A DNA stretch of 64,000 bases from Cenococcum geophilum (taxonomy: Eukaryota): NCBI GenBank assembly GCA_050273025.1, contig CP158635.1:16926001-16990000 (forward strand), read 5' to 3'. Position 1 is the first letter of the stretch. Each line of letters opens with the position of its first letter. Under the pieces are notes generated by a model that saw only the letters and a program-made list of their open reading frames with translations, did not search any database and was not told where the DNA came from. A program made the translations under genes and the position numbers. Shown piece by piece: positions 682 through 63,293 of the stretch.

Positions 682-3600
682 CCCGCTAGCGCAACTCGCT
701 AAGAAACCCAAATATACAATCTTTGCTGTTACTATAGCTAATATTAAGAAGGCCTTAGCACTAAAGAAGTATACTAACCCTACTACGAAGGTATTAGTAG
801 AGTACTATAACCGCCTAGAAGTATTCTTATAGAAGAAAGCCGATAAGCTACTAAAACACCAATCGTATAACCATAAGATTATACTTAAAGAAGGAAAGCA
901 GCCTAGATTTAGACCCCTATATAGAATATCCTAAAACGAACTCTAAGTGCTATAGAAGTATTTAGACAAGAACCTAAGTAAAGGATTTATTAGAGTAAGC
1001 TCTTTACCTATAGCTATACTAGTAATCTTTATTAAGAAACTTAATAGTAGTCTGCGCTTTTATATAGACTACTAAGCTCTTAACGCCGTTACCGTTAAGA
1101 ACTAATACCTAATCCTATTAATATAGGAGACACTAAACTAACTAAGTAAGACTCGCTACTATACAAAGCTTAATATTATCTCTGTATTTAACCGCCCCCG
1201 TATAGTAAAAGGAGATAAATGGCTTATTATATTTCGTACTTAGTATAGATTATTTAAATACTTAATAACGCTATTCGGCCTCGTAAATGCTCTAAGCTTA
1301 TTTTAATATTACGTAAATAATACCCTACGTCCCTACCTAGATATCTTCTGTACTACTTATATTAACAATATCCTAATATATAGTAATAACCTAACCGAAT
1401 ATTAGAAATACGTTTATTTTATTTTATAAGCCCTATATAGAGCTAGTTTATAATTAAATATAGATAAATATAAGTTTTATAAAACGGAAGTTCTATACCT
1501 TAGACTCCTTATTTCTATAAACGGTATATAAATAGACCTAAAGAAAGTTAAAGTAATTATAAACTAGTAAGAACCTAAGGACGTTAAGGATATAAAAGCC
1601 TTTATAGGATTTGCTAATTTCTACTAACGGTTTATTAATAACTTCTCCGCCCTAGTTTTACCCCTTATTACTTTAACCTAAAAGGATAAAGCTTTTATCT
1701 TTAATAAGGAATATAAGAAGGCCTTTGCTTATCTAAAGGTTATATTTACTACTATATCTATACTCTAATACTTTAACCTAAAATAAATAAGTGTTATAGA
1801 AGCCAACTTATCTGATTATGTTACTAAAGGTATTCTATCTTAATATAATAAAGAAGGAATATTATACTCCATAATATACTTCTTAAAATAACTAAGTCCT
1901 GCCGAATATAATTATAAGATCTATAATAAAGAATTGCTAGCTATTATTAGATACTTTAAGCAATAGCAACCCAAACTAGAAGGCGCTGGATTTTTAATTA
2001 AGGTTCTTAGCGACTATAAGAACCTATAGTACTTCACAACCACAAAATAGCTAAGTCATTATTAGGCCCGCTGGTTAGAATATCTATTACCTTTTTAATT
2101 CTTAATTACGTACTGCCTAGGCGTTTAAGGTTAGAAGCCTAATGCTCTAACCTAATACTCGCAAGACGCGCTAGCCCTAAAAGAAGCGCGCTCTTACTAA
2201 AATCAGACCCTGCTTCGCCCTAAACTATTTAACCCTTCTGCTAAAGACCTTACGGTATACGTCCTTAAAATAACTAATTAACTAATTAAATAGATTATAG
2301 TTAATAAATACCTAAATAACGAGTTTATCTAAGAAATGCTTAAGCTAATTTAAGATAGCGTTAGACGCTCTAAAAAGATTTCTTTAAGTAAATGCGAAGT
2401 TTACGGAAACCGCTTATATTACTAGAACCGTCTAGTTATCCCTAATTATAATAAGCTTAAGCTTAAGCTCCTTAAACACATATATAATCTACCTATTACT
2501 AGCTACCTAGGCCAAGAAAAGACCCTAGAACTACTCTAACGGGAGTATTACTAGCCAAATATGCATAATATAACATAAAGGTATATCTTTAGCTACTATA
2601 CCTACTAACGAGCTAAAGCCTTATATAAGACGTATAATGGTCTTTTAAAGCCGCTGCCTATTCCGGACCAAAGATAAAAGGATATCTTAATTAACTTTAT
2701 TATTAACCTCCCTAAAAGTAGAGGCTATATAAACATTATAATAGTTATAGACCAACTATCTAAAATAAGATACTTAATTGCCTATCCTAATATATTAACG
2801 CCTACCGTTGCCCAACTATTCCTAAATTATATATAGAAACTCTACAGACTCCCTAAAACAATTATCTCTAATAAAGATAGCTAGTTAATTTTAGTATTCT
2901 AAAAAGAACTAACTACCTAACTTCGTATTAAAGCACTGTTATCTACTATATACTACCTAAAAACGGATAATTAAACGGAATGCGTAAATGCTATAATAGA
3001 ATAGTATATTCGGATATACACGTTATATCTATAAGATAACTAGATTAACTGGCTTACATTTACCAAGTTTACTATAAATAATTCCGTCTTAGAAATAATA
3101 AAAGTCTCCCTGTTTCTGGCTAATTATAGCTAGTACCTATAAATAGGTTTTAAACCCTTTAGTAATATTCCTTACCCCGCTTATTACGCCTTATAGGTTA
3201 TAAAAGTAAATAAATTTATAGAAAAGATAGAGGAACTATAATAGTTCCTTACTAATAAGATAATATAGGCTTAATCTATTTATAAATCCGCAGCGAATAA
3301 GAAACGAACCCTAGCACCAGCCTACTAAATTAGTAATTTCGTCTGGCTAAATATAAGAAATTTAAACATAAAACAACCTATTAAGAAACTTAATTAGAAG
3401 AATGCTAGCCCTTATAAGGTTAAAAAGGTTATCTTTCCTTATGCCTACTAACTAAAGCTCCCTAATACGGTTAAAATCCACCCCATATTCTATACGTTAG
3501 TCCTCCACCCTACTACCCCTATATTAAACGCCCTGCCTAAATAAATATAGGACCCTCCCCTACTAGTTAAGGTAAATAGTAAGGATAAGTACTTTATTAA

Positions 3601-6600
3601 AAGAATTAATAATATTAAGTATAATAAACGGAAACGCTAATATATATATTTTATAAAGTGGAGAGGCTATACTAAGCCCTTATAGGAACCCGTTAACTCT
3701 ATAGGACTTATATAAGCCGCAGAAGACTTTTATAAACTTTATTTAGAACTACCACAGCCCTATCTCGCAGAAGCTCGAGTTTAAAGAGGGGGGTACTATT
3801 ATGGGACACCCCCGTAACACCTTATACACATTTACCTATTTCCACCAACTTAGTAACTAGAGATTGACTATAAGATAGCAATCTAACGGCAACTTGCCAT
3901 ATTCTACTATATTCTACTAAGTTCCACTAAGTTCTACTAAACCCTACTAAGTTCTGCTAAGACTACTACCTAAATCCTATTCTACTCCGTGTACGTATTG
4001 TGGTGGGGTAAAATGGGCTACTGCTTAGTGCCTTGGCATTTTCCTGTATATATCAAGCCTTCGGCTTCTCTCCTTCTCTTGATTACGACCTACTGGAATA
4101 CATTCTTTCCTTTCTTCTTACTGACTACTTTCCTACTGATTGATTACGACTGATGACTGACCGACTGACTGACCGACCGACAGACAGACAGCATTGTGAC
4201 TTCCTATCTAAGAGGGACCGCGTCTACTACCACATATGGCATTCCACGTGGGGACGACGGCAAGCTCTTTGGATTAGAAGTCTGGCACTCTATACACAAC
4301 TATATATATAGGAGGTATGCAGGAATATACTACAGCTATAGAAGAACCGATAGCTGTAGAAGAACGACTAGCTGTAAAAGAACCGCTAGCTAGATAGACG
4401 AGACAGTAGCAGAGAAGTAGATAGTATTGGACAGTAAGGGGAACCAGGTAGTCCCTGAATAGAAAGACCGGAAAAGATAGAATAGTTAGACTTAACGCAT
4501 AGGCTAAAGAGTGGCAATAGAGTGTCTTGGAGAGTTATAAGCAAGGACGTTAAGCGAACTAGTGAGCTAATTAGACGACTTTAACCGTTACCCGATATTT
4601 CTACTACCCGCGCACGAGTATGGCTAGAGCTTTGTTGAGAATATAGAGACGATAGGTAGCCAAGGGCTAATTAACTAGGTGAAAACGAGATCTAAGGCAT
4701 CCGGCGGCAGAGGAAGTTAGCACTGCCCTATAAGAATAGAGATAATACCGAGCAAGGCCGCAAGCACACGAGATCGGATCTGCCCTTAAAAGCTTCCTAT
4801 TCTGGCTTAGCTTTATCCTCTTTTAAGTTATCCGGATTATATTAGCGGCGGCTCTAGAGGCGTTCTATAAAGAAGTAAATGCAAGCGGAAGCCTAAGGCG
4901 TAGCAGTGCCCTATCGCGTGGAACGATAGTAGGCCAAAATAGACGGACGTATCGAGACCCGGCAGTAGTAGAAGATGGCGATTTTGTGCTCTCCCAGGAA
5001 GACCGACCTCTAGGCGTTAAGAAGCAGCTAGAAGGAACCGAAGCCTATACTTCTTTTGCTGAGTATAAACCAATACTAAGACAGCTATTTAGGACACCCT
5101 TACCTTAGGTAGCAATGTAAGTAGATTAGCCGCGGCCTTTACCCGTTTAGGTAGCAAGGGAAGTACGCCACGTGTTCGTTCTAATGGTAGCAATGCCAGA
5201 TCCTTTTGGGTAAGGGGTTCTACGGTTTAACGGAAAGAATATCTCTAGGTTTATTAAGGGCTACGAGGGTATGTGTTAAAGGTACTACGTAGGCGAAGAC
5301 CGCAGGCTCGCGTGTCTCCTTAACTATTGCGAAGGCTTATACGTGGAAGCTATTTAGATGACACCGGAATTTAAATAGGACGACTAGAGCCGACTGGTGA
5401 CTAAACTCCGAGCCGAATATTAAGCCGAGGACTACTATCGACGTATAGAGATAAGAGACTTCGTAAAAGCTTTCGTTCGAAAATCTGCGGAACAGCTAGG
5501 CGACTTACGTCACTACGTGCAGGACTTCTCTACTATCTCAGCCAAAGTGGTAGCTGTAGGAAACCTTACTGAGCAAGAGAAGGGGCGATGGTTTGTGCGA
5601 GGACTTTCTATTAAATACCGCAAGCACGTAATGGAAAAGATAGGAGCCGTAGTAGACGAGCCTAGTACCCTTGTGTTTAAAAGGCTGAAGGAGGCTGTAG
5701 AGTTAAGGATAGTGGCTGTAAAGGGCGCCGAGCGAATGGATGTCCTTCTAGAAGAAGACGCCCTAAATGTCTAGCTTATATAGGAGCTACGGCAGTAAAG
5801 GGATGGGCTTGACCGTAGAAGAGAAGGAAGGCTTTTAGACTTAGGTGTATATAGAGGAGCCCTAACGTAGCAGCAGTCACCCGCTATAGATTAGGAAATG
5901 GGCGAAATGGGAAGCTAGCTAAGGAGTCTAAAGCCGACCAAGATGGAGCTTGCGGCAGCTGCACGGTTGATGCCGTTTCTTAATTAAATACGGATGGACC
6001 CAAGGAAGCTTATAACGCTGACGAATTAGGCTGTAGCTTAAGGCCTAGTATAAGGATATAGCCCAGCACTAGGATACAAAGACTGGCAGAATAGTACCCG
6101 ACCTCTGTAGGACTCTTAACCTCTATAGGACTCTCGACCTCCGTAAGGCTTTTGATATCCGTAAAGCTCTGAATATCCGTAAGGTTCTACCGCCTTTAGA
6201 CGGCCGCAACGGGACGTACGGGGTTAGTGAGGATAAGGCCGGTGGACCTGTTTTGGATATAGAGGAAGTCACTGTTTCACCAAGCACGAATATTAAGGCT
6301 TGAAGGATCTTATTTAGTAAGGATTTGTATATCTGTTTAACTGAGGAAGACTAGTAGCTAGGACGCGTGAACGACCTGGACCTAAACTTCCGTGGCTCGG
6401 CAATGAAGGACGATTAAAGGGTATTAAGAACTGGCTTTATATGTACCGAGGAATAGACCTAGATAGATAGGTACGTTAGAAAATAGAAGGATAAGGATAG
6501 ACGTAGAAATAGGCCCCTATAGGACAAACGGATTTTACTGCTTTCTATAATGGAGTAGTGCTAAAGAATAGTGACAAAACACGTATAAACTGGGAGGACT

Positions 6601-46700: not shown

Positions 46701-49700
46701 GCTAGCACCTATAAATAGGTTTTAAACCCTTTAGTAATATTCCTTACCCCGCTTATTACGCCTTATAAGTTATAAAAGTAAATAAATTTATAGAGAAAAT
46801 AGAGGAACTATAACAGTTTCTTACTAATAAGATAATATAGGCTTAATCTATTTATAAAGCCGTAGTAAATAAGAAATAAACCCTAGTACTAGTTTATTAA
46901 ATTAGTAATTTTGTCTAACTAGATATAAGAAATCTAAATATAAAATAACCTACTAAGAAACTTAATTAGAAGAACGCTGGCCCTTATAAGGTTAAAAAGG
47001 TTATCTTTCCTTATACCTACTAACTAAAGCTTTCTAATACGGTTAAAATCCACCCCATATTCTATACGTCAGTCCTCTACCCTATTACCCCTATATTAGA
47101 CGCCCTGCCTAAATAAATATAAGACTGTAACGGAATTCCCTAGAAGGTACATATTAGATAAGATAGAAGGAGGTCTTATCTATATTTTAGAAGGAGGTCT
47201 TATCTATGTTCCAGAAGGAGGTCTTACCTATATTCTATCTACGTCCTAAAAGATATAGTCAGACAGATAAGGGGCAAAGGGTTTTACTAGCGTCTTAGAA
47301 AGATCATATAGGGAGCTAGTTCTCCTCTAGAGAAGAACCAGCAATTAGTCTCTAAATAGAAGTAGTTAAAAGCATTTGTCCTTTAATATATAAAACTTAT
47401 TCTACCTTTAACTTACCTTCTATTTACCTTTAACTTACCTTCTATTTACCTTTAACTTACCTTCTACTTACCGGTAATACTGTCGATTAGATAATTATAT
47501 ATTCCGGTTAAGCTAGCCTCTTATAATTCTAATCGCTTACAATCCGTTAGGAACGTACGGCTATTAATTAACAATAATAAACTATACTCCTATACCCCAT
47601 AAAGCAACGCCCTTACTATAAAAGGCTCAAAAAGTCTCCCCAGAGGAGCGCATTTTCTTTTCCTATAAAGAAGCCACGGCTGGTCCGTTTAACCTTATAA
47701 GACCTTTAGAAACGATTACCGCTAGGGAGTTATTGGAGCGGTCGCTATATAAGACCCTATAAAAAACAAAGGAGTTAGAGATATGATTAAGATAAGTATA
47801 TTAAGACTACCAAGAACAATTGTAAGGACAATTAGGGGAAGTATAAACACCCCAGACACAAAGCGGACTTAAAGGGGTAACGCCATACTATGCTATAACG
47901 TTAGAAAAACCTAAATTCCGTATAAAGGAACCTAATAAGTACTATAGTGATAGTCTTCGGAACTATAATTGTTTTATCCGACAATATAAAACCAAGTTTT
48001 AGCTAGATCTAAAACGTTACTCTAATGAGTATAATTAGACACTAATTACTTCTACCTTCCTGCGTAGCACCGTCGAGAGTTTATAGACACGCTATAAGAA
48101 GAAACTTACTATACCCCTTAAATTTAGCGAACTTAGGACCTAGTTGGTCGATTAGGTCTAAGACCCTACTAATTAAGGGATAGACTATAACTAGCGATAC
48201 CACAACGCCAAACAGCGGGATAGTTAGACTGTGGTCCAGTTTATAAACTACTTAGAAGAACTAGAAGACAATATACCCTACTTAGATCTATAGGATAACG
48301 CTATACAACTTTACCAGCTACTCGCTAAGCTATAACCTAAGATTTGACAGGCTATATAAGAGAAGGGCAAAATTCCTACCTCTTAAGAAAAGCTTATCTC
48401 TAAAGCTACTTAGATTAAGAGTGCTAAAAAAGACCATTTAGGCAAGTAAAAGGAACGAGACGCTAACAATAAAGAGCGTAGGACTAGACCTAGCTTTAAT
48501 AATAGGGGTAGATTCCGACCTAACCGCTCTACGGAAGAATAACGCAAGTAGGCCTCGCAGCCTTAGAGCAACGCTAGTTAACCCTAAAATAACAATAGGC
48601 AGAAACCTAATCCGCAGAAGGGGAACCAGGAGATACGTACCTATTATAACTACGGCAAGAAGGGCTATATAAGCCGCTTCTACCGGCAGAAGAAGTAAGA
48701 GTCGGCCTAATTGGGAAAAGAGACAGCTTAGTAGATCTTTACTCCCTTACACTAGGCTAGTAAGAGAAGGAGGGAGTAAACTGCCGTATAGTTATTCCTA
48801 TCTCTATTTAAGTTAATAATAAATAGGTAACGCGAGACTGCCTTATAGACAGCGGCGCGAGTATGGGGTTTATTTCTCAATTACTGGTAAAAGAATTAGA
48901 TTTGGACCTTAGCGGCTCGTAGGTGCGCACCGTTTAAAGCATCGGAGGCTACTAGATTCCATACTATGGGGAATAGGCTTTTTCCATGGCCAGCTAGGAC
49001 CGCGATAGTCTATGGGACACGCAGGAGATACGCTTCTGTGCCGCAGAAATCAAGGGGTACAACCTTGTTTTGGGATACCTATGGCTTTACTAAGTCAATC
49101 CGGACATTAATTGGCCTTCAGCCTTATATTAACATTAAAAGTCTTAACCGCGCATTATAGTCGAAGATTAAGAGACTTTCTTAAACCATATGCAAGAAGA
49201 AGGGTGGGTATATGCCATATATACCACTCTTGACACTAAGAACGGGGACACGGGATATTTATTTTCGGATATCTAGCTATATATAGTTAAGGAACTAGAG
49301 ATTCTATAGGAATATACGGACTTAGAGGATATTTCTAGTAAAGAGGCTGCATAAACCTTACCCGACCCTATATTAGTTAAGCATAAGATAGATATAGGGG
49401 ATAAATAACCTCCTTTTAGACCGCTGTATAACCTATTAGAAAATGAGCTGGCGGTACTACATTAATATATAGTGGACAATCTTTAGAGAGGATAGATTCG
49501 GCCCTCTATAAGCCTAGTAGGGGCGCCAATTATATTTATACCTAAGAAGGACGGGACCCTTTACCTCTATATTAACTATTAGGCGCTAAACAAGATTACT
49601 ATAAAGAATCGCTACCTATTACCCTTAATAGGGAAGCTTATTAATAGGCTATTGGGCGCAAAGATATTTATAAAATTAGATCTAAAAGATATATACCATC

Positions 49701-50439
49701 AAATCCAGATTAAAGCCGGCGATAAGTAGAAAACGGCGTTCTAAATATAGTACGGCCACTTTAAGTACCTAGTAATGCCATTTAGGCTTACTAACGCACT
49801 AGTGATATTTCAGGCCTATATTAATAAGGCATTATCGGGCCTGTTAGACACAATATATATAGTCTACCTTAATAACATTATAGTCTACTCTAATAACTAC
49901 GAAGTATATACGTACTACGTGCGAATAGTACTAGAAAGACTACGGGAATATAAGCTCTATATAAACCTAAAAAAGTGCACGTTCTATACTACTAGCATTA
50001 ATTTTTTAGGCTTTATCGTCAGCGTTAACGGAATCGTCAGGAAAACAAGAGAGTGGTAGGGGCTAGCTAGGGGCTGGCCCAGGGCTAGCCTGGGGTCATT
50101 TTAGCTGGATCCGCTGATCTGCTTATATACACTTTTTTACACTAGCCCCAGGCCCCATTAGCAATATTAGCAACATTAGCAACATTAGCAATATTAGCAA
50201 TATTAGTAATATTAATAATATTAATTTTAAAAATTATAATATATCTTTTTACTATAATATTTTCTATAACTGCAATATTTATATAGGAATAATAATGGGT
50301 TTTAAATTTTAAATTTTAGTTATTAAGCAATTAATTAAAATAAGTAGGAAGCCTCTTGCAGAGGCTCCAAATCGTTAATTAGCGATATTCCTGACGATCT
50401 ACCGGCCGTGTACTGATTTCCTAACTAGGCCTAGCACCC

Positions 50440-50635
50440 GCCTACCTATCTGCCTGCCTACCTACCTACTTACTTGCCTGCCTACCTGCCTACCTACCTA
50501 CCTACCTACCTACCTGCCTGCCTGCCTGCCTACCTACCTACCTACCTACCTACCTACCTACCTGCCTGCCTATACCTATCTATGCCTACCTATATATGCC
50601 TACCTGTCTATACCTACCGTCTATATCTATCTATA
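50440..50635. repeat. (CCTA/CCTG)n microsatellite
   Basis: Direct inspection. Confidence 0.9.
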
Positions 50636-50742
50636 GTATCTAATTCAATTTGATTTGGTAGCGGGCTAATATCGAGGCTCTGGTTCGATTCGATCGATCG
50701 ATTAAGTCGCTCGTGGTGTTGCTGACTGGTTGTTCGAACGAT

Positions 50743-51256
50743 CGTCGTCTAGTTCTGGCGACGGTCGTCTGGTCCTGATGACGGTCGTCTGGTTCTGATG
50801 ACGGTCGTCTAGTTCTAATGACGGTCGTCTAGTTCTGGCGACGGTCGTCTAGTTCTGGCGACGGTCGTCTGGTTCTGGCGACGGTCGTCTAGTCCTGATG
50901 ACGGTCGTCCTGATGACGGTCGTCTAGTTCTGGCGACGGTCGTCTAGTTCTGGCGACGGTCGTCTAATTCTGGCGACGGTCGTCTGGTTCTGGCGACGGT
51001 CGTCTGGTTCTGGCGACGGTCGTCTGGTCCTAATGACGGTCGTCCTGATGACGGTCGTCTAGTTCTGGCGACGGTCGTCTGGTTCTGGCGACGGTCGTCT
51101 AGTTCTGGCGACGGTCGTCTGGTCCTGACGACGGTTGTCTGGTCCTGACGACGGTTGTCTGGTCCTGACGACGGTCGTCTGGTCCTGATGACGGTCGTCC
51201 TGATGACAGTCATCTAGTTCTAGCGACGGTCGTCTGGTTCTAGCCACAGTCATCTA
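50743..51256. repeat. 20-bp tandem array (GACGGTCGTCTRGTTCTGGC), ~25 units with occasional 15-bp variants
   Basis: Head-to-tail units without unique spacers. Confidence 0.92.
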
Positions 51257-53429
51257 CTAGCTGCCGTTGTAGTGCCTCCCTAGGTAGAGAGGATGGAAGG
51301 AAGGGTAAAAAATAAGTGGTATTTAGGTGTATAAGGGGTATATAAAGACACGTAGAGGCTGCTAGGAATATAGTGGGGACCTAATAGCACTGTAGGCCGC
51401 TGTTAGAACGATTAAGATAACCAGGAAAATTAAAGTCCTACTAGGAGCCTGCTAGGAAGCCTGCTAGGAGCCCGCTAGGAAGCCTTTAGGATTTTAATAC
51501 CCTAATAGCAATAAACGTAATAATAGTAATAATGTTTATTTTATAGCTATAAGTTAGCATAATGCTAGCGTATAGCTCTAGGGCCTAGCTAATATGGTAA
51601 AAAGCTGGCGTAGAGCGCTAGGGGGCTAGCTAATATGGCGGAAAGCTAGCGTAGAGCTTTAGGGGGTCAGCTAATATGGCGGAGAGCTAGCCCTAGGCCC
51701 CAAAAACACTTTTAGCGAAACTAAATTTCATACGCCACCCCCCGTTTTCCTGACGCATATCAATAGAGAAAAGTCAGGTAGACGCTATTAGGAAATAGCC
51801 CTACCCTATAATATTTAGAGAAGTATAGGTTTTCTTAGGCACGGCGAACTTCTACTAAATATTCATTATTTACTACTTACAAGTAATACTCCCAATTACC
51901 GATCTACTAAAAGGATCTAAGAATGGCAGGAAGTTAGGACCCTTTATATTTAGGGAAGCTGCTAAGTAGGCTATAGACCAGTTAAAGGATTTATTTATAT
52001 CGGCGCCTATCCTAATATACTTCTACTAGGAGCTATATATATACCTTAAAACGGATATATCCGGCTTTGCCCTAGGGGCAATTATATCTTAATTAAAAGA
52101 CGGAAAATGGCATCCTATAGCGTTTTAGTTAAGGAAAATAACCCCTATAGAGCAGCGTTATATAACGCACAACTAGGAGCTGCTCGCGATAATCGCAGTA
52201 ATAAAGTATTAGCGACATTATTGTATGGGAAGCAATTATCCCATTAAAGTCCTTACAGACTATAACAACCTAGAATACTTTATAACTACGAAGGTGTTAA
52301 GCGGTCGATAAGCTAGGTGGGCAGAGGCACTATTATAGTACGATTTTAAGATTACGTACCGCCCAGGAAAGATAAATCCTGCTAATAGGTTATTAAGACG
52401 TCTAGATTACGAGATAGGGAGGATCTAGGACAGCATAGGGGAAATAATCCCTATATTGCAAAATTTGCTTAGGAAGAAAGAAGACTCTTTCCCTAGAACT
52501 ATAGAATTTCGCGGCAGGGCAGAGGTCCCGGCGATATAGCTACGAAGTAATATAATTATAGAGCCGCAGGATATAGTTATAGACTAGGTTATAGACCAAG
52601 CAGATATTACAAAGTTAGCGTACCCCAGAATTAGCGAGAATTCTACGGGATATGCTAGAGGTGTCGCGGCACCTTTAACTTAACGGCGTATTAGCTACGA
52701 GTTCTCGGATCTAAGGGGGATAGGCGAGATGCCTATCTATAGCGTGGCACACTGCATAACGGTAGGAGAATCTGCTAGCACTAATAGTTTAAAACGTCTC
52801 GTGCTACGCCTTAAGTCTATAATAGCGGCAGGCGAAATAGAAGCAAGCGATCTATATAAAACCTTTCTAGATCTTCTTCTTTAAGCTTAATAAAGGGACG
52901 CCTTCGCCTCTAGGGAGAGGTAGAAAGATATAGTGGAGACTAACTTGGCTAGAGTTACTAAGAAGCTATAGCAGCAAGACTAAAAGGGTTTATTGCGCTT
53001 TAAGGGTGCTATATATATCCTAAAGGACTAAGCAATTTAAGACGAAATTCTAAAGGTCTTCTATAACGACCCTTTTAGGGGTTACTATAGTGCCAATAGA
53101 ACCCTTAAGGCCGTTTAAAGAAAATAATTTTAGGACGGAATGTCTAAAGAGGTTAAGGACTATATATTAAGGTATAATACGTGCCAAAGGATATATATAT
53201 CTAGGCATCGCCTATACGGCGAGTTATTAGTGCTTCCTATTCTATAGGGACCCATATTAGAATTAACAATAGATTTTATTACAGGCTTACCCCCTACTAA
53301 GATAAGAACTAGAGAAGTTGCTAACGCTATCCTAGTAATTGTTAATAGGTATATAAAGTTTTCAGGATACTTTGCTGTTATAATAACGATCACAGCAGTA
53401 GAACTGGCAGACCTGTTTTTAGAACGGTG

Positions 53430-53644
53430 TGTGAGGGGATCTTGTAGACAGGGGGCTATAAGGACACGATTGGAACAAGATAGATTGGTAAGAGAGACGA
53501 ATCCTTGAGGAGGTAAGGCCTCTGGGATCGTGGAGACTATATACTACGGGCACGTGCCTCCGGCACGTGACCGGCGACCATCCAAGGGGCGTCCGGGGGT
53601 TGTCCTGAGGGCAACCCGAGGTGTCCGCAATAATATCCCTTACA
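53430..53644. mobile_element. Solo LTR (215 bp) inserted in Gypsy-C integrase
   Basis: TGTGAGGGGA...TCCCTTACA termini; 5-bp TSD CGGTG; the integrase frame (LADLFLERW-LSFG) is restored on removal. Confidence 0.88.
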
Positions 53645-56600
53645 CGGTGGCTCTCGTTTGGTATGCTAAGGGGAATTGTGTCTGACAGAGGCACCGTATT
53701 TAATAGTACATTTTGGTCTTCATTCTGTCTCTTATTGAAAATACGGCAAAGGATAAGCACTACCTTTTACCTGCAAATAGATAGGCAAATAGAGCATCTA
53801 AATGCGTTATTGGAACACTACCTCCGCTGCTATGTCAATTATTAACAGAATGATTAGACATTGTAGTTAGCTTTAGCGCAGCACGTATATAACACAAGTA
53901 TCTATAGCAGTATAAAAATAACCCCTTATAAAGCATTGTTTGGGGTAAAAGTAAATAACCCCTAGAATGTTAAGGACATCGTTCCTAAAAAAGAGGCACT
54001 AGCGGCGTCCGAAAGAATTAAGCAAATGAGAATTCGCAGAAAGGAACTCGAAAAGCACTTACTAGACGCCCAGGCTGTGTAAAAAAGGTACTATGACAAA
54101 AAATATATGCCGAAAGAATTCGAGATAGGAGATGAAGTCTTACTATCTATAAAAAATATCCGAATAAAACGTATTAAGAAGAAGCTGGATCACTAGTAGC
54201 TTAGACCCTTTAAGATAGTTAAGAAAACCAAAGAAAACTAAGCCTATAAATTAGAATTACCGAAATCTTATCTAATACATCCCATATTTTATATTTCCTT
54301 ACTAAAGCTATACTAGAGAAGAGATAGTACGGAACCACCCCTACCTAGCGAAATTAATAGGGAACTGGAATGGAATGTAGAAGACATTCTAGACTAAAGA
54401 TAGCGCTAGAAAAAGCGCGAATTTTTAGTTCATTAGGAAGGATACTCTTAGGCGCATAATAGTTAGAAATCTAAGGAGTACCTTTGGCCAGGATATAATA
54501 CCGTAATTAAAACCTTCCTAAGAACTAAAGGTAAAGACTTAGAAATGGTTCTAGATATGCCATAGGTAAAATAACAGGAAAGACCCTATAAATTAAAACT
54601 ATAGAATTAAGTATAGGTATTAAGAACGGAAACGTTTTGCTATTATAATAGGGATCCTAGAATTCTGTAAGAGGAAGCCTATAGGGATCTATAGGAGAAC
54701 TACTAAGGATACTATTTAAAGAAGACGCTATATAAGAAGGAGTAGTAGTACTATAAGAAGTGGCCTTAGGGATTTAGCAAGATCCCCTAGGGATAAAAGG
54801 AGAGTATCTGGCCTAGCACTAGAGATATATAGTAGAGTTAATAGTATAAAGAGGAGTAAAAGGACAGCCTATAAAGAATTAGAAATTTTAAGGAATTATA
54901 AGGCACCTATAGGAACACTACCCGTTTATTATATATGGGGATTATAGTAGTATACTGCATTTATATAGATTGTTACTAAAGCTTAGAATAAAGGCATCCC
55001 TAAAGTATAAAGTTAATTCCTAATAATAGGGCATTCTAGAGGCACCTAAGAGGTACTATATAAAGCTATTTTATAAGAAGAAAAGAGCTAGGTAATAACT
55101 TAAACACTAGCAGCAGTAATAGGAGCCTCCTCTTCTATCTTAATGTTATTATCGACGGTATTATTAGCTCCTCTATCCCTAGAAGCATTAGCACTTCTAC
55201 TAACATTCTTCTTAGAACGACGGGTACTAGAAGGACTAGCACAGGCGGGAGACTGGCGAGGAGAACGTTCATCTTAACCTTCGTTACTATCCTTAGTATC
55301 CCTAGGTTCCAAATCGGCGTCTAAGTAGAGATTAGAAAGATATTGGCTAAAGAAGTTAGCACAGTTCCCAAGCAAGTTACTAGAGAAACTTACCTAGCTA
55401 AAATAGCCCGCGTAAGAGTACGAATGTTATTATTAATAAGGACAAGCTATTTGTATATACGCTCCTAGACACTATATATCTAAGAACGTTGCGTCTTTAT
55501 AGTAGTGGAAACCCTTATAGAATTAAAGAGTCTATAAGCGAGGGAAGACACCTTTTATCCCCGCCTGTCACTATTAGGATATTAGCAGAAATCTTAGATG
55601 GCGCGTTAGAGCCTATAAGTCTTATATGCATAGATAGCGGGGATCTAGTATAATTAGCGAAATTTAGAATAGGATAGAATGGGAAATACTGGGATATAGG
55701 TCTTTCTCCTACTATAATAATAGGAGCACTTAGATTTATTTTTGCTGGAGTAAGGCATTTTATAGACGTGGGAAAGATCCTACGTAAGAGTATAAATATA
55801 GCGACAACAGCATTTTAGGGAAACTGCTATAGAAGTAACAGACGCTATCTAGGGCGTTACTAGGAGATTAATAATACTACCGCCGGTCTAGGGACCACGA
55901 GCTATTATAAGAGAATACTCTAAGAAGTTAGCATTATTATAAGAAGATAAGGTAGGGATCCTATTACTTATAAACGTATTATAAGAAGAGAATAAAGTAG
56001 CTATAAAAGAACAGCTAGAGATATAGAAGCTAAAAGCGAAGATATAGAGGAAACAGTCTGCTAAAAGATAAGACGAATAGTGTTATTAATAAAAAGACGC
56101 GTAAGAGGCAACAGCTTATAAACTAGAAGAAAATTAAAATAAAGACGTTATTATTAGAATCCATTTTAGGTAAATAGGGATAGTAGCTCGTAGATATATT
56201 GCATAGGATAACCTCTAGATTAACTTATAACAAACTCTTATAATAAGAAAGGTAAATCCTATCCAATTTTCATTATTATTATTTTAGTTCTATTACAAAG
56301 GCATTATAGGGAACTATAGTAGGAAAAGAGCAGAGGAACTAAGGATAAAGTAAGATTCTACGCTAGTGAAGAACTAGCTATAAGCCGTATTATAAAGTAC
56401 CTTTCTACTAAGAATTTCCCTAGTAGTTTTAGCCGGAACTTTATAAAAGCTTAGTAGAGGCGAAGTCTTGGAGGACTAAGACCCTTAAAGGGGAGGCAAT
56501 TATAACAGAATTCCCTAGAAGGTATATATCAGATAAGACAAAAGGAGGTCTTATCTATGTTCTAAAAGGAGGTCTTATCTATATTCCAAAAGGAGGTCTC

Positions 56601-56881
56601 ACCTATATTCCATCTACGTCCTAAAAGACACGGTTAGATAGATAAGGGGTAAAGGGTTTTACTAGCGTCTTAGAAAGATTATATAGGGAGCTAGTTCTCC
56701 TCTAGAGAAGAACTAGCAATTAGTCTCTAAATAGAAGTAGTTAGAAGCATTTATCCTTCAATACGTAAAACTTATTCTACCTTTAACTTACCTTCTATTT
56801 ACCTTCAACTTACCTTCTACTTACTGGTAACACTGTCGATTAGATAATTATACGTTCCGGTTAGGCTGGCCTCTTACAAAT

Positions 56882-57327
56882 TATAACGTGGCCCACCTCT
56901 ACGTCGCCATACGGCCAAAAAGACTAAGAGTGCTTGCGAACTTGTTGCAAGCGCGGCGGGACCTAATATATATACTCTTACAATTGCCCTCTTCTCTGCG
57001 CGCTCGTCCCCGAGCGCTCGCAGGGATTCCTCTATGCGCCCGTTTGGGCCTCTACAGGGATTAAACGCCAAGAGTATTACTATATTAGTTAGTCCCTAGT
57101 AATATAAGCAATCGGAATCTCTATTAACGCCTTATCGCACGGATGCGCGTTAGACTATACCAGAGCGAAGTAACCGATGGGGATTAAACCTACGACACCT
57201 GGCCCCAGTAAGTTCGCAAGCACAATTGTAACGTGGCCCGCCTCTACGTCGCCATACGGCCAAAAAGACTGAGAGTGCTTGCGAACTTGTTGTAAGCGCG
57301 GCGGGACCTAATATATATACTCTTATA
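56882..57327 (-). mobile_element. TRIM (miniature LTR retroelement), 101-bp LTRs with 244-bp non-coding interior
   Basis: LTRs 56882-56982 and 57227-57327; minus-strand PPT GAGAAGAGGGCAAT; PBS complementary to its own LTR. Confidence 0.9.
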
Positions 57328-58098
57328 AAGACCCTCCCCTACTAGTTAAAGTAGATAGTAAGAACGAGTACTTTATTAAAAAAAATTAATAATATTAAGT
57401 ATAATAAACGGAAACGCTAATATATATATCTTATAAAATAGAAAGGCTTTACTAAGTCCTTATGGGAACCTATTAACTCTATAGGACTTATATAAGCCAC
57501 AGAAGACTTTTATAAACTTTACCTAAAACTACTATAGCCCTATTTCGTAGAAGCTTAAGTTTAAAGGGGGGGTACTATTATAGGGCACCCCTATAATACC
57601 TTATATATATTTACCTATTTCCACTAATTTAGCAATTAGAGACCAACCGTAAAATAGCAATTTAATGGCAATCTAATGGCAATCTAACGGTAATTTACGG
57701 CATTCTATTAAGTTCTACTAGGACTATAACCTAAACCCTATTCTACCTATATATGTATTAACTAAGCAACTAAGTTAATAATATATGCCCTTTCTTCCCG
57801 TTTTCCTACCTTCTTTCCTTACGTAACGTCTTAACCTCCTTATATAGTTTATATATATAGCTTAATAATATCTACCTTGCTATATATTATCGTCGCTTAT
57901 ACTTACTCTATGACAATAAGCTTAATTGCTAGCTATTGACCGTGCTAAGTATATTGACGCGTGATAGTTTAAGACGTTTAATGCAGAACAGGAACAGGTT
58001 AGGAAACGTGGTCGAAGATATAGGGGTAGTAGTGGTACGTGCGTAGGTGTCACGGGACGAACGTACATGGGTAACTCCCGTGACATAAAGCCTCTATA

Positions 58099-58524
58099 AC
58101 GTAGTCGGCAAGCCTATGGGCCATGCAAGCCTGTGGGCCATATTAAAACCCCACTAAAAAATAGAAAACCCACACCTTAATCTTAACAACCACTAAGTAA
58201 TAAATTCTAATAATGTAGATTTAGACTTTTATATATAGTCTATAGCTTCTATTAAAGTTGCATTGTAAATAGTTTAGTAGTTTTTAAGATATTAAATTTT
58301 AGGGGCCAAAATAAAGCTATATTACTATATCTCAAAAACTACTAAACTATGTACAATATAACTTTAATAGAAGCTATAGAGTATATATCAAAGTCTAAAT
58401 CTAAATTATTAGAATTTATTACTTAGTGGTTGTTAAGATATTAAAGTATAAATTTTCTATTTTTTTTAGTGGGGTTTTGATGTGGCCCACAGGCTTGCAT
58501 GGCCCATAGGCTTGCCGACTACGT
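58099..58524. mobile_element. Palindromic MITE (Tc1/mariner-pogo/Fot1-like ends)
   Basis: ACGTAGTCGGCAAGCC... / ...GGCTTGCCGACTACGT with TA on both sides; arms of ~190 bp around a short loop. Confidence 0.9.
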
Positions 58525-59256
58525 TAATACGGTTAACGATAAGGCAATTAAGACTTTAAATTAAAGATAAGGTAGTAGATAGCTCGGGCTTATAACTATC
58601 GTACGGATAAGTTATTAAGGAGAATTCTATTCCATTATAAGAGGCTCTAGAGCCTCACTATATATACTAAATAGATGGCAAAAGGCTAACGACGACGATC
58701 TATAATTGCCACCATGGACGTCGCTACTTAGTTGGTATAGGTAATAGAAATAGGTAATAGAAATAAGAGTAAGACATACGATGGCAAGAAATAGGGTTGT
58801 GAGTCATAAGGTGGTGTACCTGACAGTGACCTCGACTGTCGACATGTTGCGCTACATTCTAGAACTTTTCACTCCACATCTTGTGCCTTTGAAACGTGGC
58901 AAAGCAATTGGGCATTTGATTCTCTGCGAAAGCTGTGTCGTGATTATTCTTTATTCTTGCTTCTCCTTTCTTAGGTTGAAGACGTGTGGCGAAGAATTTA
59001 GTTGGTGAAGAAGCGCCAGGATTTTCACGTGCCTCACGGCGTCATGGCCAATCAGCCTCAAGAGTCATGTGCTGCGCCCTCTGCCTCCCAAAATAACATC
59101 ACAAAAAGTATGATAGATCTGTCATCCGTCGCGCTATATGAAAGGTGGCATATCTTTCACAGTAGTTCATTCTCCGCTTCACACAAGTTTCGTACCTAAT
59201 AACTCCAAACGGTCGTTTCAACTCCCACTATCAAACAATTTTCGACCTCTATCATC

Positions 59257-61479: not shown

Positions 61480-63293
61480 ATGGCAGGAATATTTGAGCAA
61501 CCCCGAAATGCTGGCACACTCTGTATGTATCCTCCGCCCAAACAGGGTACATAGGCTAATAGAGCATCACAGTCCTCGGCGGCCAGAAAGTGAGTGGACA
61601 AGACATCCGCGACCAAAATGTCCTCGCAACACAAGCAATCGCCAATGTGATAAAATCCTCCTTTGGGCCCTCGGGTCTAGACAAAATGATGGTCGACGAT
61701 ATCGGCGATGTCACAGTCACCAACGACGGCGCCACCATCCTCAGTCTGCTGGATATTGAGCACCCTGCAGGCAAGATACTAGTTGATCTCGCGCAACAAC
61801 AAGACAAGGAAGTCGGAGATGGCACAACCTCTGTTGTGATAATAGCGGCGGAGCTCCTGAGGAGGGCGAACGAGCTTATGAAGAACAAAATACATCCTAC
61901 TACGATTATTACGGGATACAGGCTGGCGTTACGAGAGGCGGTGAAATATATGAACGAGAATATTAGCACGAAGGTAGAGAACCTGGGACGGGAGAGCCTG
62001 ATAAGTATTGCCAAGACATCCATGTCTAGCAAAATTATAGGATCGGACTCGGATTTCTTCGCCAACATGGTTGTGGACGCCATGCAGTCTGTCAAGTCTG
62101 TCAACAACAAGAACGAAGTCAGATACCCTGTCAAGGCTGTGAATATCCTTAAAGCACATGGAAAGAGCGCCACGGAATCAATATTAGTCAAGGGCTATGC
62201 ACTGAATTGCACCGTCGCCTCACAAGCCATGACTACGCGGGTTCCAGACGCTAAAATTGCTTGTTTAGACATAAATTTGCAGAAAGAACGGATGAAGTTG
62301 GGTGTGCAGATTACAATCGACGATCCGCAACAGCTCGAGAAAATCCGCGAACGGGAAGCCGGTATTGTAGTCGAGCGTGTGGAGATGGTCCTCAAAGCAG
62401 GTGCCAACGCTGTCTTTACAACCAAAGGAATTGACGAGCTATGCCTAAAGCTTTTTGTCGAGAAAGGTGCTATGGCCGTACGGAGGTGCAAGAAGGAGGA
62501 TTTGCGCAGGATAGCAAAAGCGACAGGTGCCACACTTGTCTCCTCGCTCTCCGATCTCAATGGCGACGAGAAGTTTGAGCCGTCATTGCTAGGTCAAGCG
62601 GAAGAGGTGGTACAGGAGCGTATCTCGGACGATGAATGTATTCTCGTTAAAGGCACGAAAGTACACTCTTCTGCCTCTATTATCTTGCGGGGTGCCAACG
62701 ACTACTCCCTTGACGAGATGGAACGCTCCGTCCATGACTCTCTCTCCGCCGTGAAACGAACCCTTGAAAGTGGACGCATAGTGCCCGGTGGTGGTGCCGT
62801 TGAAACTGCGCTACACATCTACCTAGAAGAGTGGGCAACCTCTGTAGTAAGTTGACTCCCTGTAATCCCTTAAATGCCAGGCTCTAAATCAAACAAGGGT
62901 TCTCGCGAACAACTCGCCATCGGCGCTTTCGCCCAATCCCTCCTATCCATCCCGAAAACGCTCGCCGTCAACGCCGCCAAGGACTCGTCCGAGCTAGTTG
63001 CGCAGCTACGCTCCCGACATGCACTCAGCCAGCGCACAGCCGACGATCCAGCCGCAACAACAGACCAAAAAGCGCTTGCCCGCTCTAAGAACTACAAGAA
63101 CTACGGACTAGACCTCGTGAACGGGAAGGTCGTTGACGAGATCAAGGCGGGCGTACTAGAGCCATCTATGAGCAAGGTGAAGCAGCTGAAGAGCGCGGTT
63201 GAGGCATGTGTCGCTATTATGCGAATTGATACACTGATTAAGCTGGATCCGGAGGAGAGGGGAAATCCAGATGACGATGGGCATGGGCATTAG
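61480..63293 (+). CDS. CCT1: T-complex protein 1 subunit alpha (CCT chaperonin); exons 61480-61522, 61573-62846, 62898-63293
   Basis: [47 protein letters not shown] motifs; canonical introns join the ORF-track pieces. Confidence 0.96.

Follow-up and report, generated by a model that had tools for sequence, protein, structure and literature searches.

Recurrent tail-to-tail joining of a TRIM to an unrelated LTR retrotransposon within single target-site duplications in Cenococcum geophilum

Introduction

A gene-less TRIM and a full-size, unrelated LTR retrotransposon, Gypsy-C, were found joined at their tail ends and forming one chromosomal insertion in Cenococcum geophilum. Across the genome, at least eight such LTR-to-LTR dimers are distributed over six contigs, each within one 5-bp target-site duplication (TSD); five of these combine Gypsy-C with the TRIM and at least three combine two TRIMs. 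We consider it likely, with a probability of roughly 0.8, that the dimers originate from two different linear LTR cDNAs whose U5 ends were joined and whose outer U3 ends were integrated in one event. Below, we describe the structure and recurrence of these dimers, weigh the alternative explanations for their origin and discuss Gypsy-C as a candidate helper of the TRIM.

Results

Composite insertion and its target site

The window, i.e. the whole stretch of 64,000 nucleotides analysed here, belongs to contig C1 in an assembly of 178 Mb and 7 contigs and consists of repeat-rich fungal DNA showing RIP-type decay, suggesting that the host is an ascomycete with active RIP. The composite (Table 1) interrupts a host Gypsy element, a paralogue of which is present in the same window (3129-3892). 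Both flanks of the composite combined align with this paralogue at 89% identity over 765 bases, and the paralogue contains the target 5-mer, in the form AGGAC, as a single occurrence at the insertion point. Given that the 5-mer is found only once in the host paralogue, the two copies of AAGAC represent a true duplication, and because the flanks are continuous there, the 10.2-kb block was inserted in its entirety at one 5-bp target. For unrelated flanks, the computed probability of a chance match is 0.0025 for an exact 5-base match and 0.027 with up to one mismatch. Neither Gypsy-C nor the TRIM has a TSD of its own at the internal junction in the window. The original prediction, made from the letters of the window, had described precisely this arrangement, with AAGAC at both outer ends and none inside; its coordinates hold and the duplication is now backed by the host paralogue. 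Two later insertions within Gypsy-C had been missed in the prediction, as had the AAT/ATT extension common to both ends of both elements.

Table 1. Features of the composite insertion in the window and LTR-to-LTR dimers identified in the genome
Feature	Position	Strand	Remarks
Left TSD, AAGAC	47121-47125	+	Host paralogue has single AGGAC at 3549-3553
Gypsy-C, putative chromovirus-type	47126-56878	+	Followed by AAT, then the TRIM
Gypsy-C 5' LTR, 400 bases	47126-47525	+	U3 end TGTAACGG, left outer end of the composite
Gypsy-C ATT spacer (47526-47528) and PBS-like TCTAATCG	47526-47535	+	
Gypsy-C internal region	47536-56486	+	RIP-broken gag-pol
Later nested insertion	50035-51755	.	12-base terminal inverted repeats, internal tandem repeats; absent from C2 copy
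Later nested solo LTR	53430-53644	.	Another family; TSD CGGTG
Gypsy-C polypurine tract (PPT)	56487-56500	+	Ends GGC-AAT; GGCAAT at 56495-56500
Gypsy-C 3' LTR, 378 bases	56501-56878	+	U5 end CTCTTACA towards junction
Junction, CTCTTACA-AAT-TATAAC	56871-56887		
Junction spacer, AAT	56879-56881	+	ATT on the TRIM strand
TRIM	56882-57327	-	
TRIM 3' LTR, 101 bases	56882-56982	-	U5 end towards junction
TRIM internal region, 244 bases	56983-57226	-	
TRIM PPT	56997-56983	-	Ends GGCAAT (56988-56983)
TRIM PBS-like stretch, 14-base	57223-57210	-	Complementary to 57288-57275 in 5' LTR
TRIM ATT spacer	57226-57224	-	
TRIM 5' LTR	57227-57327	-	U3 end, right outer end of the composite
Right TSD, AAGAC	57328-57332	+	Rest of host Gypsy element beyond
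Gypsy-C/TRIM dimer	Window locus		Spacer AAT; TSD AAGAC; full Gypsy-C
Gypsy-C/TRIM dimer	C2:11.38 Mb		Spacer ATT; TSD GGTAT; full Gypsy-C
Gypsy-C/TRIM dimer	C2:25.33 Mb		Spacer ATTAAT; TSD GTAAA; solo Gypsy-C LTR
Gypsy-C/TRIM dimer	C5:4.90 Mb		Spacer ATTAAT; TSD TAATA; solo Gypsy-C LTR
Gypsy-C/TRIM dimer	C6:8.68 Mb		Spacer ATT; TSD TAACA/TAACG; solo Gypsy-C LTR
TRIM/TRIM dimer	C3:11.37 Mb		U5-U5; spacer ATTAAT; TSD CTCGT
TRIM/TRIM dimer	C2:16.58 Mb		U5-U5; spacer AAT; TSD ACCCT; one LTR split by 6-kb insertion
TRIM/TRIM dimer	C7:16.74 Mb		U5-U3; spacer ATTAAT; TSD GTAAT

Beyond the composite, the window contains a MITE-like, near-perfect inverted repeat of ~430 bases (58097-58526), the arms of which are 93-94% complementary. 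Only two frames of at least 150 codons are found in the window, one of 430 codons on the plus strand (61563-62855) and a second overlapping it on the minus strand; the former is perhaps a host gene or part of a young element.

The two partners

The LTRs of Gypsy-C differ from each other by 34 transitions, mostly at CpA, and one 22-base indel, with no transversions. When stops were read as X, Pfam profiles matched the pol products in the order protease, RT, RNase H, integrase and SH3 (RVT_1, 4e-25; RT_RNaseH, 3e-24; Integrase_H2C2, 5e-05; SH3_Tf2-1, 1e-12), with the protease match being weak and below the cut-off (E 0.006). A chromodomain following the integrase (Chromo, 6e-06) was recognized only in the C2 copy (L066), which is ~90% identical to the Gypsy-C of the window, there being no Chromo match to the window copy itself in the Pfam search. 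The pol gene order and the chromodomain suggest that Gypsy-C is a chromovirus-type Ty3/gypsy element. Its PBS-like TCTAATCG is able to form 8 pairs with CGATTAGA inside the LTR (47484-47491), a pairing of the self-priming type, and Gypsy-C may thus be self-primed.

Both insertions nested in Gypsy-C have relatives elsewhere. The 1.7-kb element at 50035-51755 is non-coding, with tandem repeats of 4, 8 and 20 bases, and has a relative within or next to the insertion splitting the TRIM LTR at C2:16.58 Mb (L139). Near position 51580, 23 of its bases are similar to the internal region of the TRIM (E 3e-4 with L002), a likeness that is probably due to chance. The 215-base solo LTR lies within the integrase region of Gypsy-C and has relatives in L014 and L090.

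The TRIM is 446 bases long and displays TG...CA repeats, a PBS-like site, a PPT, a 5-bp TSD and many copies; it lacks any ORF reaching 150 codons. Its LTRs are identical at 96 of 101 positions, the 5 differences all being transitions. A first look yielded 406 candidates in the genome, a figure that does not imply copy number. The PBS-like stretch is predicted to fold with the 5' LTR into a 14-pair stem, and such complementarity of the PBS to the element's own 5' LTR transcript points to self-priming of the Tf1 type. The positions of the PPT and of the self-priming site place the TRIM on the minus strand, and the window junction is therefore U5 to U5.

Ordinary members of both families are flanked by 5-bp TSDs of their own. 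At 29 ordinary TRIM loci, the TSD is exact in 26, with one mismatch in 2 and two mismatches in 1, and it is present in all three Gypsy-C copies for which both LTR sequences were examined. The two families are thus mobile elements independent of each other, and the composite is the normal form of neither. Two TRIM loci (L004 and L025) are three-LTR tandems with mixed LTR variants (ends TGTAACGTGG and TGTAACGTTT) within one TSD, resembling tandems produced by template switching or recombination.

Recurrence across the genome

The search for further heterodimers added four Gypsy-C/TRIM cases to the one described in the original prediction, two of which keep the full ATT plus AAT. A pattern placing the Gypsy-C U5 end against the TRIM U5 end had 5 matches in the genome and 0 in the control. 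The three TRIM/TRIM dimers found each join LTRs of different variants, and the U5-U3 case on C7 carries an extra LTR, again of a different variant. Three LTR variants, of 378, 386 and 461 bases, are represented among the Gypsy-C partners of the five heterodimers. Given that the spacers (three types), the TSDs (five) and the Gypsy-C LTR variants (three) differ, these heterodimers, and all eight dimers likewise, are best read as independent events. Relative to the 406 first-look TRIM candidates, dimers amount to ~1-2 per hundred, as an order of magnitude.

Dimers were accepted only when LTR ends were present on both sides of the joint together with an outer TSD, because a look-alike on C4 demonstrates that the spacer alone can mislead: at C4:15852204, the ATTAA-TTATAACG found after Gypsy-C marks an ordinary insertion, the TSD of which is ATTAA. 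At C3:15424976, internal repeat sequence lies on the left and another LTR family on the right; ten TRIM ends from a wider search have their own TSDs; and L263-L265, L267 and L268 all lack an LTR end of Gypsy-C or the TRIM on at least one side. All of these were rejected. The search patterns need intact CA and TG ends, and joints with deletions would escape them. One additional locus, L266 (G000:C3:21115250-21115410), is a 20-base inverted repeat with ends starting with TGTAACG and a 2-base AT spacer; it matches neither Gypsy-C nor the TRIM and may represent a third LTR family joined end to end.

Junction spacers and cDNA ends

In both elements, ATT lies between the 5' LTR and the PBS, and AAT between the PPT and the 3' LTR; the original prediction had correctly pointed to the shared ATT and to the GGCAAT at the end of both PPTs. 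Under the standard scheme for reverse transcription of LTR elements, the terminal bases are set by the spacers at the PPT and the PBS, and the linear cDNA of either element would therefore be expected to read AAT-TG...CA-ATT. Half of the dimer spacers (4/8) are ATTAAT and the other half (4/8) are ATT or AAT, against background frequencies of 0.0014 for ATTAAT and 0.056 for AAT and ATT together. The six-base spacer would result from two uncut (or filled-in) ends joined blunt. A three-base spacer could be produced by two routes, namely, the joining of one cut end to one uncut end, or the joining of two cut ends, the 5'-AAT overhangs of which would pair with a central mismatch that resolves to AAT or ATT. 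No PBS-derived bases were present at any junction of the dimers found. Since both ends of both elements share the AAT/ATT extension, the spacer by itself tells neither the orientation nor an uncut end. Accordingly, the earlier reading of the window spacer as an unprocessed cDNA end is borne out insofar as the spacer equals the predicted extension, but two cut ends could also resolve to ATT or AAT.

Within the composite (47126-57327), the attachment sites of the two families are swapped: the U3 end of the TRIM equals the U5 end of Gypsy-C (TGTAAGAG read inward), and the U5 end of the TRIM resembles the U3 end of Gypsy-C (TGTAACG).

Orientation of the joints

Seven of the eight dimers are joined U5 to U5 (p 0.0004 if the four joins are equally likely), as are all five Gypsy-C/TRIM dimers (p 0.001, or 0.004 without the index case); the test assumes equal survival and equal detection of the four joins. 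In the fully listed genome pattern searches for the other three Gypsy-C/TRIM orientations, no further junction was recovered. One of the orientation searches gave 94 matches, of which 46 were judged from the sequence and 48 from the listed spacer alone, none of the latter being ATT, AAT, AT or ATTAAT. This search recovered four of the five known Gypsy-C/TRIM cases, suggesting fair sensitivity. Another gave 20 sites, none of which had an ATT, AAT, AT or ATTAAT spacer; the sequence was examined at 15 of them. In six looser pattern searches, dimers were assessed only among the matches listed. Perfect palindromes, that is, Gypsy-C joined to Gypsy-C or one TRIM variant joined to itself, may have been purged, so the absence of same-variant tail-to-tail pairs says little.

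Discussion

Origin of the dimers

The reading that we favour involves three steps. Linear cDNAs of both Gypsy-C and the TRIM would be present in one integration event; integrase would insert the U3 end of each cDNA into the two strands of one target, leaving one 5-bp TSD; and the U5 ends would be joined end to end, with no LTR bases lost. A single target, two molecules, U3 ends on the outside and exact U5 joints are evident from the sequences themselves, whereas the U5 joint would be the product of end-joining by host repair, and integrase would trim three bases. Joining of the U5 ends may have followed the integration of the two U3 ends or preceded it, and we lean only slightly towards the former, the two orders leaving the same sequence. 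In the later-joining order, integrase would bring together and insert one U3 end from each of two cDNAs, after which sealing of the U5 ends left free would close the break; this order would explain the U5-U5 bias if U5 ends mature late. The self-primer of Tf1 reportedly remains on the cDNA. Blockage of the U5 end would account for the bias most simply, but the lack of PBS residue at the joints weakens this explanation. Single strands derived from the primer have been described at the ends of Tf1 cDNA (PMC11042837). The original prediction had proposed that two linear cDNAs were ligated U5 to U5 and then integrated as one unit; a single event, two cDNAs and the U5-U5 joint are retained here, whereas ligation before integration becomes one of two orders.

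The main rival, which we regard as unlikely, is an end-to-end jump of RT within the particle, by which the plus strand, finished at U5, would be continued onto a second cDNA, yielding CA-ATT-AAT-TG, and the resulting dimer would be integrated. RT is capable of end-to-end jumping, and such a jump would need co-packaging. It would always involve a U5 end, as is the case in 8/8 dimers, and it predicts ATTAAT both at U5-U5 joints, where this spacer occurs in three dimers, and at the U5-U3 joint, where it occurs in one. However, the exact three-base spacers in the other 4/8 are not readily produced in this way, there are no untemplated bases at the dimer joints, and a 2-base AT spacer, which should be the preferred outcome given the palindromic AATT at either end, is found in 0/8.

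Successive integration of the TRIM and Gypsy-C at the same site, with decay of the internal TSD to AAT, appears very improbable. Such double insertion has been documented in Drosophila (McGurk and Barbash, 2018; PMC5932611), where end-to-end LTR dimers, some of them inverted, such as a Rover pair with ATATAT at its junction, resemble those described here, and AAGAC could become AAT by one transition and the loss of two bases. Yet after double insertion the target 5-mer is expected to remain within the junction (PMC5932611), whereas 0/8 dimers retain it, whatever the outer TSD; the absence of an internal TSD in all eight thus argues against this route.

Even less credible is an assembly artefact, or later recombination bringing neighbouring elements together. 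The region is repeat-rich, and no junction-bridging contig was present among the 32 listed of 4080 short-read contig pieces, although both repeats are represented among these contigs. In run X5, loose ends before 57328 resemble the left flank in the host, as would be the case for either an empty allele or a paralogue, and a metagenome scan for the junction gave two chance matches without LTR similarity. However, neither a mis-join nor a deletion would re-create a continuous host element across a matching TSD, or recur at eight loci on six contigs with spacers that match the cDNA ends predicted. It is on the restored host element, the TSD and the eight-locus series that the case against assembly error is built.

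Integrases can cleave circle junctions, and a mixed circle of two cDNAs (U5-U5 plus U3-U3), reopened by integrase at U3-U3 and inserted, would yield the identical final sequence, with ATTAAT as the expected 2-LTR circle junction; given that two joins and a specific recut would be needed, with no reason for reopening at U3-U3 in 7/8 dimers, this scenario is as implausible as the artefact.

Gypsy-C as candidate helper

Gypsy-C is the probable supplier of proteins to the TRIM, with co-packaging a plausible route. In 5/5 heterodimers, the autonomous partner is Gypsy-C, within a search limited to families with ends beginning TGTAA. At least three other families with TGTAAC ends are present in the examined DNA and would have matched the partner search; none was found as a partner. 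One other LTR family, starting with TGTTA and hence outside this search, also has a PPT ending in GGCAAT. Gypsy-C and the TRIM share the ATT spacer, the GGCAAT end of the PPT, the 5-bp TSD and, in swapped positions, two termini of 7-8 bases. Because the TRIM termini are swapped, a tail-to-tail dimer displays the normal end pair of Gypsy-C outward, but this pair is not required, since two TRIM/TRIM dimers lack it. Comparison of the TRIM with Gypsy-C proper revealed no internal sequence or packaging signal convincingly common to the two, only short matches at the chance level, and the single internal match below E 0.1 falls in the nested insertion; RIP may hide a small shared motif. Alternatively, cDNAs from separate particles could have been joined in one nucleus. 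Hence, the identification of Gypsy-C as a co-packaging helper in the original prediction gains from the recurrent partnership, but has to be tempered by joining across particles and by the restriction of the search to TGTAA ends.

Comparison with known arrangements

Four-LTR TRIM arrays have been described in maize, with 6 L4I2 and 6 R-L4I2 structures among 93 arrays (Gao et al., 2016; PMC4717578). As in the dimers described here, two complete miniatures are adjacent, in some cases inverted, and one such array has a single TSD and was checked by PCR. However, the maize structures are pairs of TRIMs of the same family, whereas five of the dimers described here pair a TRIM with an unrelated autonomous element; furthermore, the available text of that report gives no junction sequence, orientation rule or mechanism for the arrays, whereas the junctions here match uncut cDNA ends (PMC4717578). 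Two elements within one TSD, attributed to a single integration, also are known from the template-switch complexes of cereals (Sabot and Schulman, 2007; PMC1950507) and from plant tandem LTR retrotransposons (PMC11899658). These structures are arranged head-to-tail within one family, share the LTR in the middle and have outer LTRs that are nearly identical (PMC1950507; PMC11899658). By contrast, the dimers described here have four LTRs, inverted orientation, two families, no homology at the joint and unrelated outer LTRs. Insertion of a template-switch complex was rejected for the window, where two separate LTRs meet at the joint in inverted orientation.

In 2-LTR circles of retroviruses and LTR elements, uncut cDNA ends are joined without homology, with extra terminal bases at the junction. 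Such circles are by-products in which the U5 and U3 ends of a single molecule meet, whereas the dimers described here combine two molecules, in most cases through their U5 ends, and are integrated. An integrated 2-LTR circle was rejected because the window junction is U5-U5 between families, and the U5-U3 case on C7 has the extra LTR of a different variant. Junctions of 2-LTR circles are also mentioned in a report on Tf1 (PMC11042837), in which integrase-independent tandems with one shared LTR are attributed to Rad52 annealing; here, the outer TSD is clean and no LTR is shared. Both partners resemble the Tf1/sushi group of Ty3/gypsy elements (PMC4600332) in having a PBS complementary to their own 5' LTR (14 pairs in the TRIM and 8 in Gypsy-C). 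In the open-access literature, we found no report of dimers of autonomous and non-autonomous LTR elements with uncut-end junctions, or of a U5-U5 bias. Overall, tandem LTR structures are known, and the dimers described here are a real, recurrent by-product of LTR integration in this genome that offers a useful means of assigning helpers.

Implications

The helpers of TRIMs are mostly unknown, and for 278 of 289 plant TRIM subfamilies no related autonomous element was recovered by sequence search (PMC4717578). Joints within one TSD tie a passenger to a candidate helper independently of homology, and they can be looked for in any genome assembled from long reads. Furthermore, the junctions allow the uncut cDNA ends (AAT-TG...CA-ATT) to be read for elements of which the examined copies are dead. 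If the U5-U5 bias seen among the dimers found holds, the ends of self-primed cDNAs would not be equally ready for integration, and integrase would be able to pair the ends of two molecules in vivo. More tentatively, and with the balance somewhat against it, integrase may regularly pair the U3 ends of two co-packaged cDNAs, with self-primed U5 ends being late and the host sealing the break, so that the dimers would be fossils of co-packaging. If so, helpers could be assigned to non-autonomous LTR elements from the genome alone, along with the cDNA ends and the extent of trimming by integrase, three bases in the present case.
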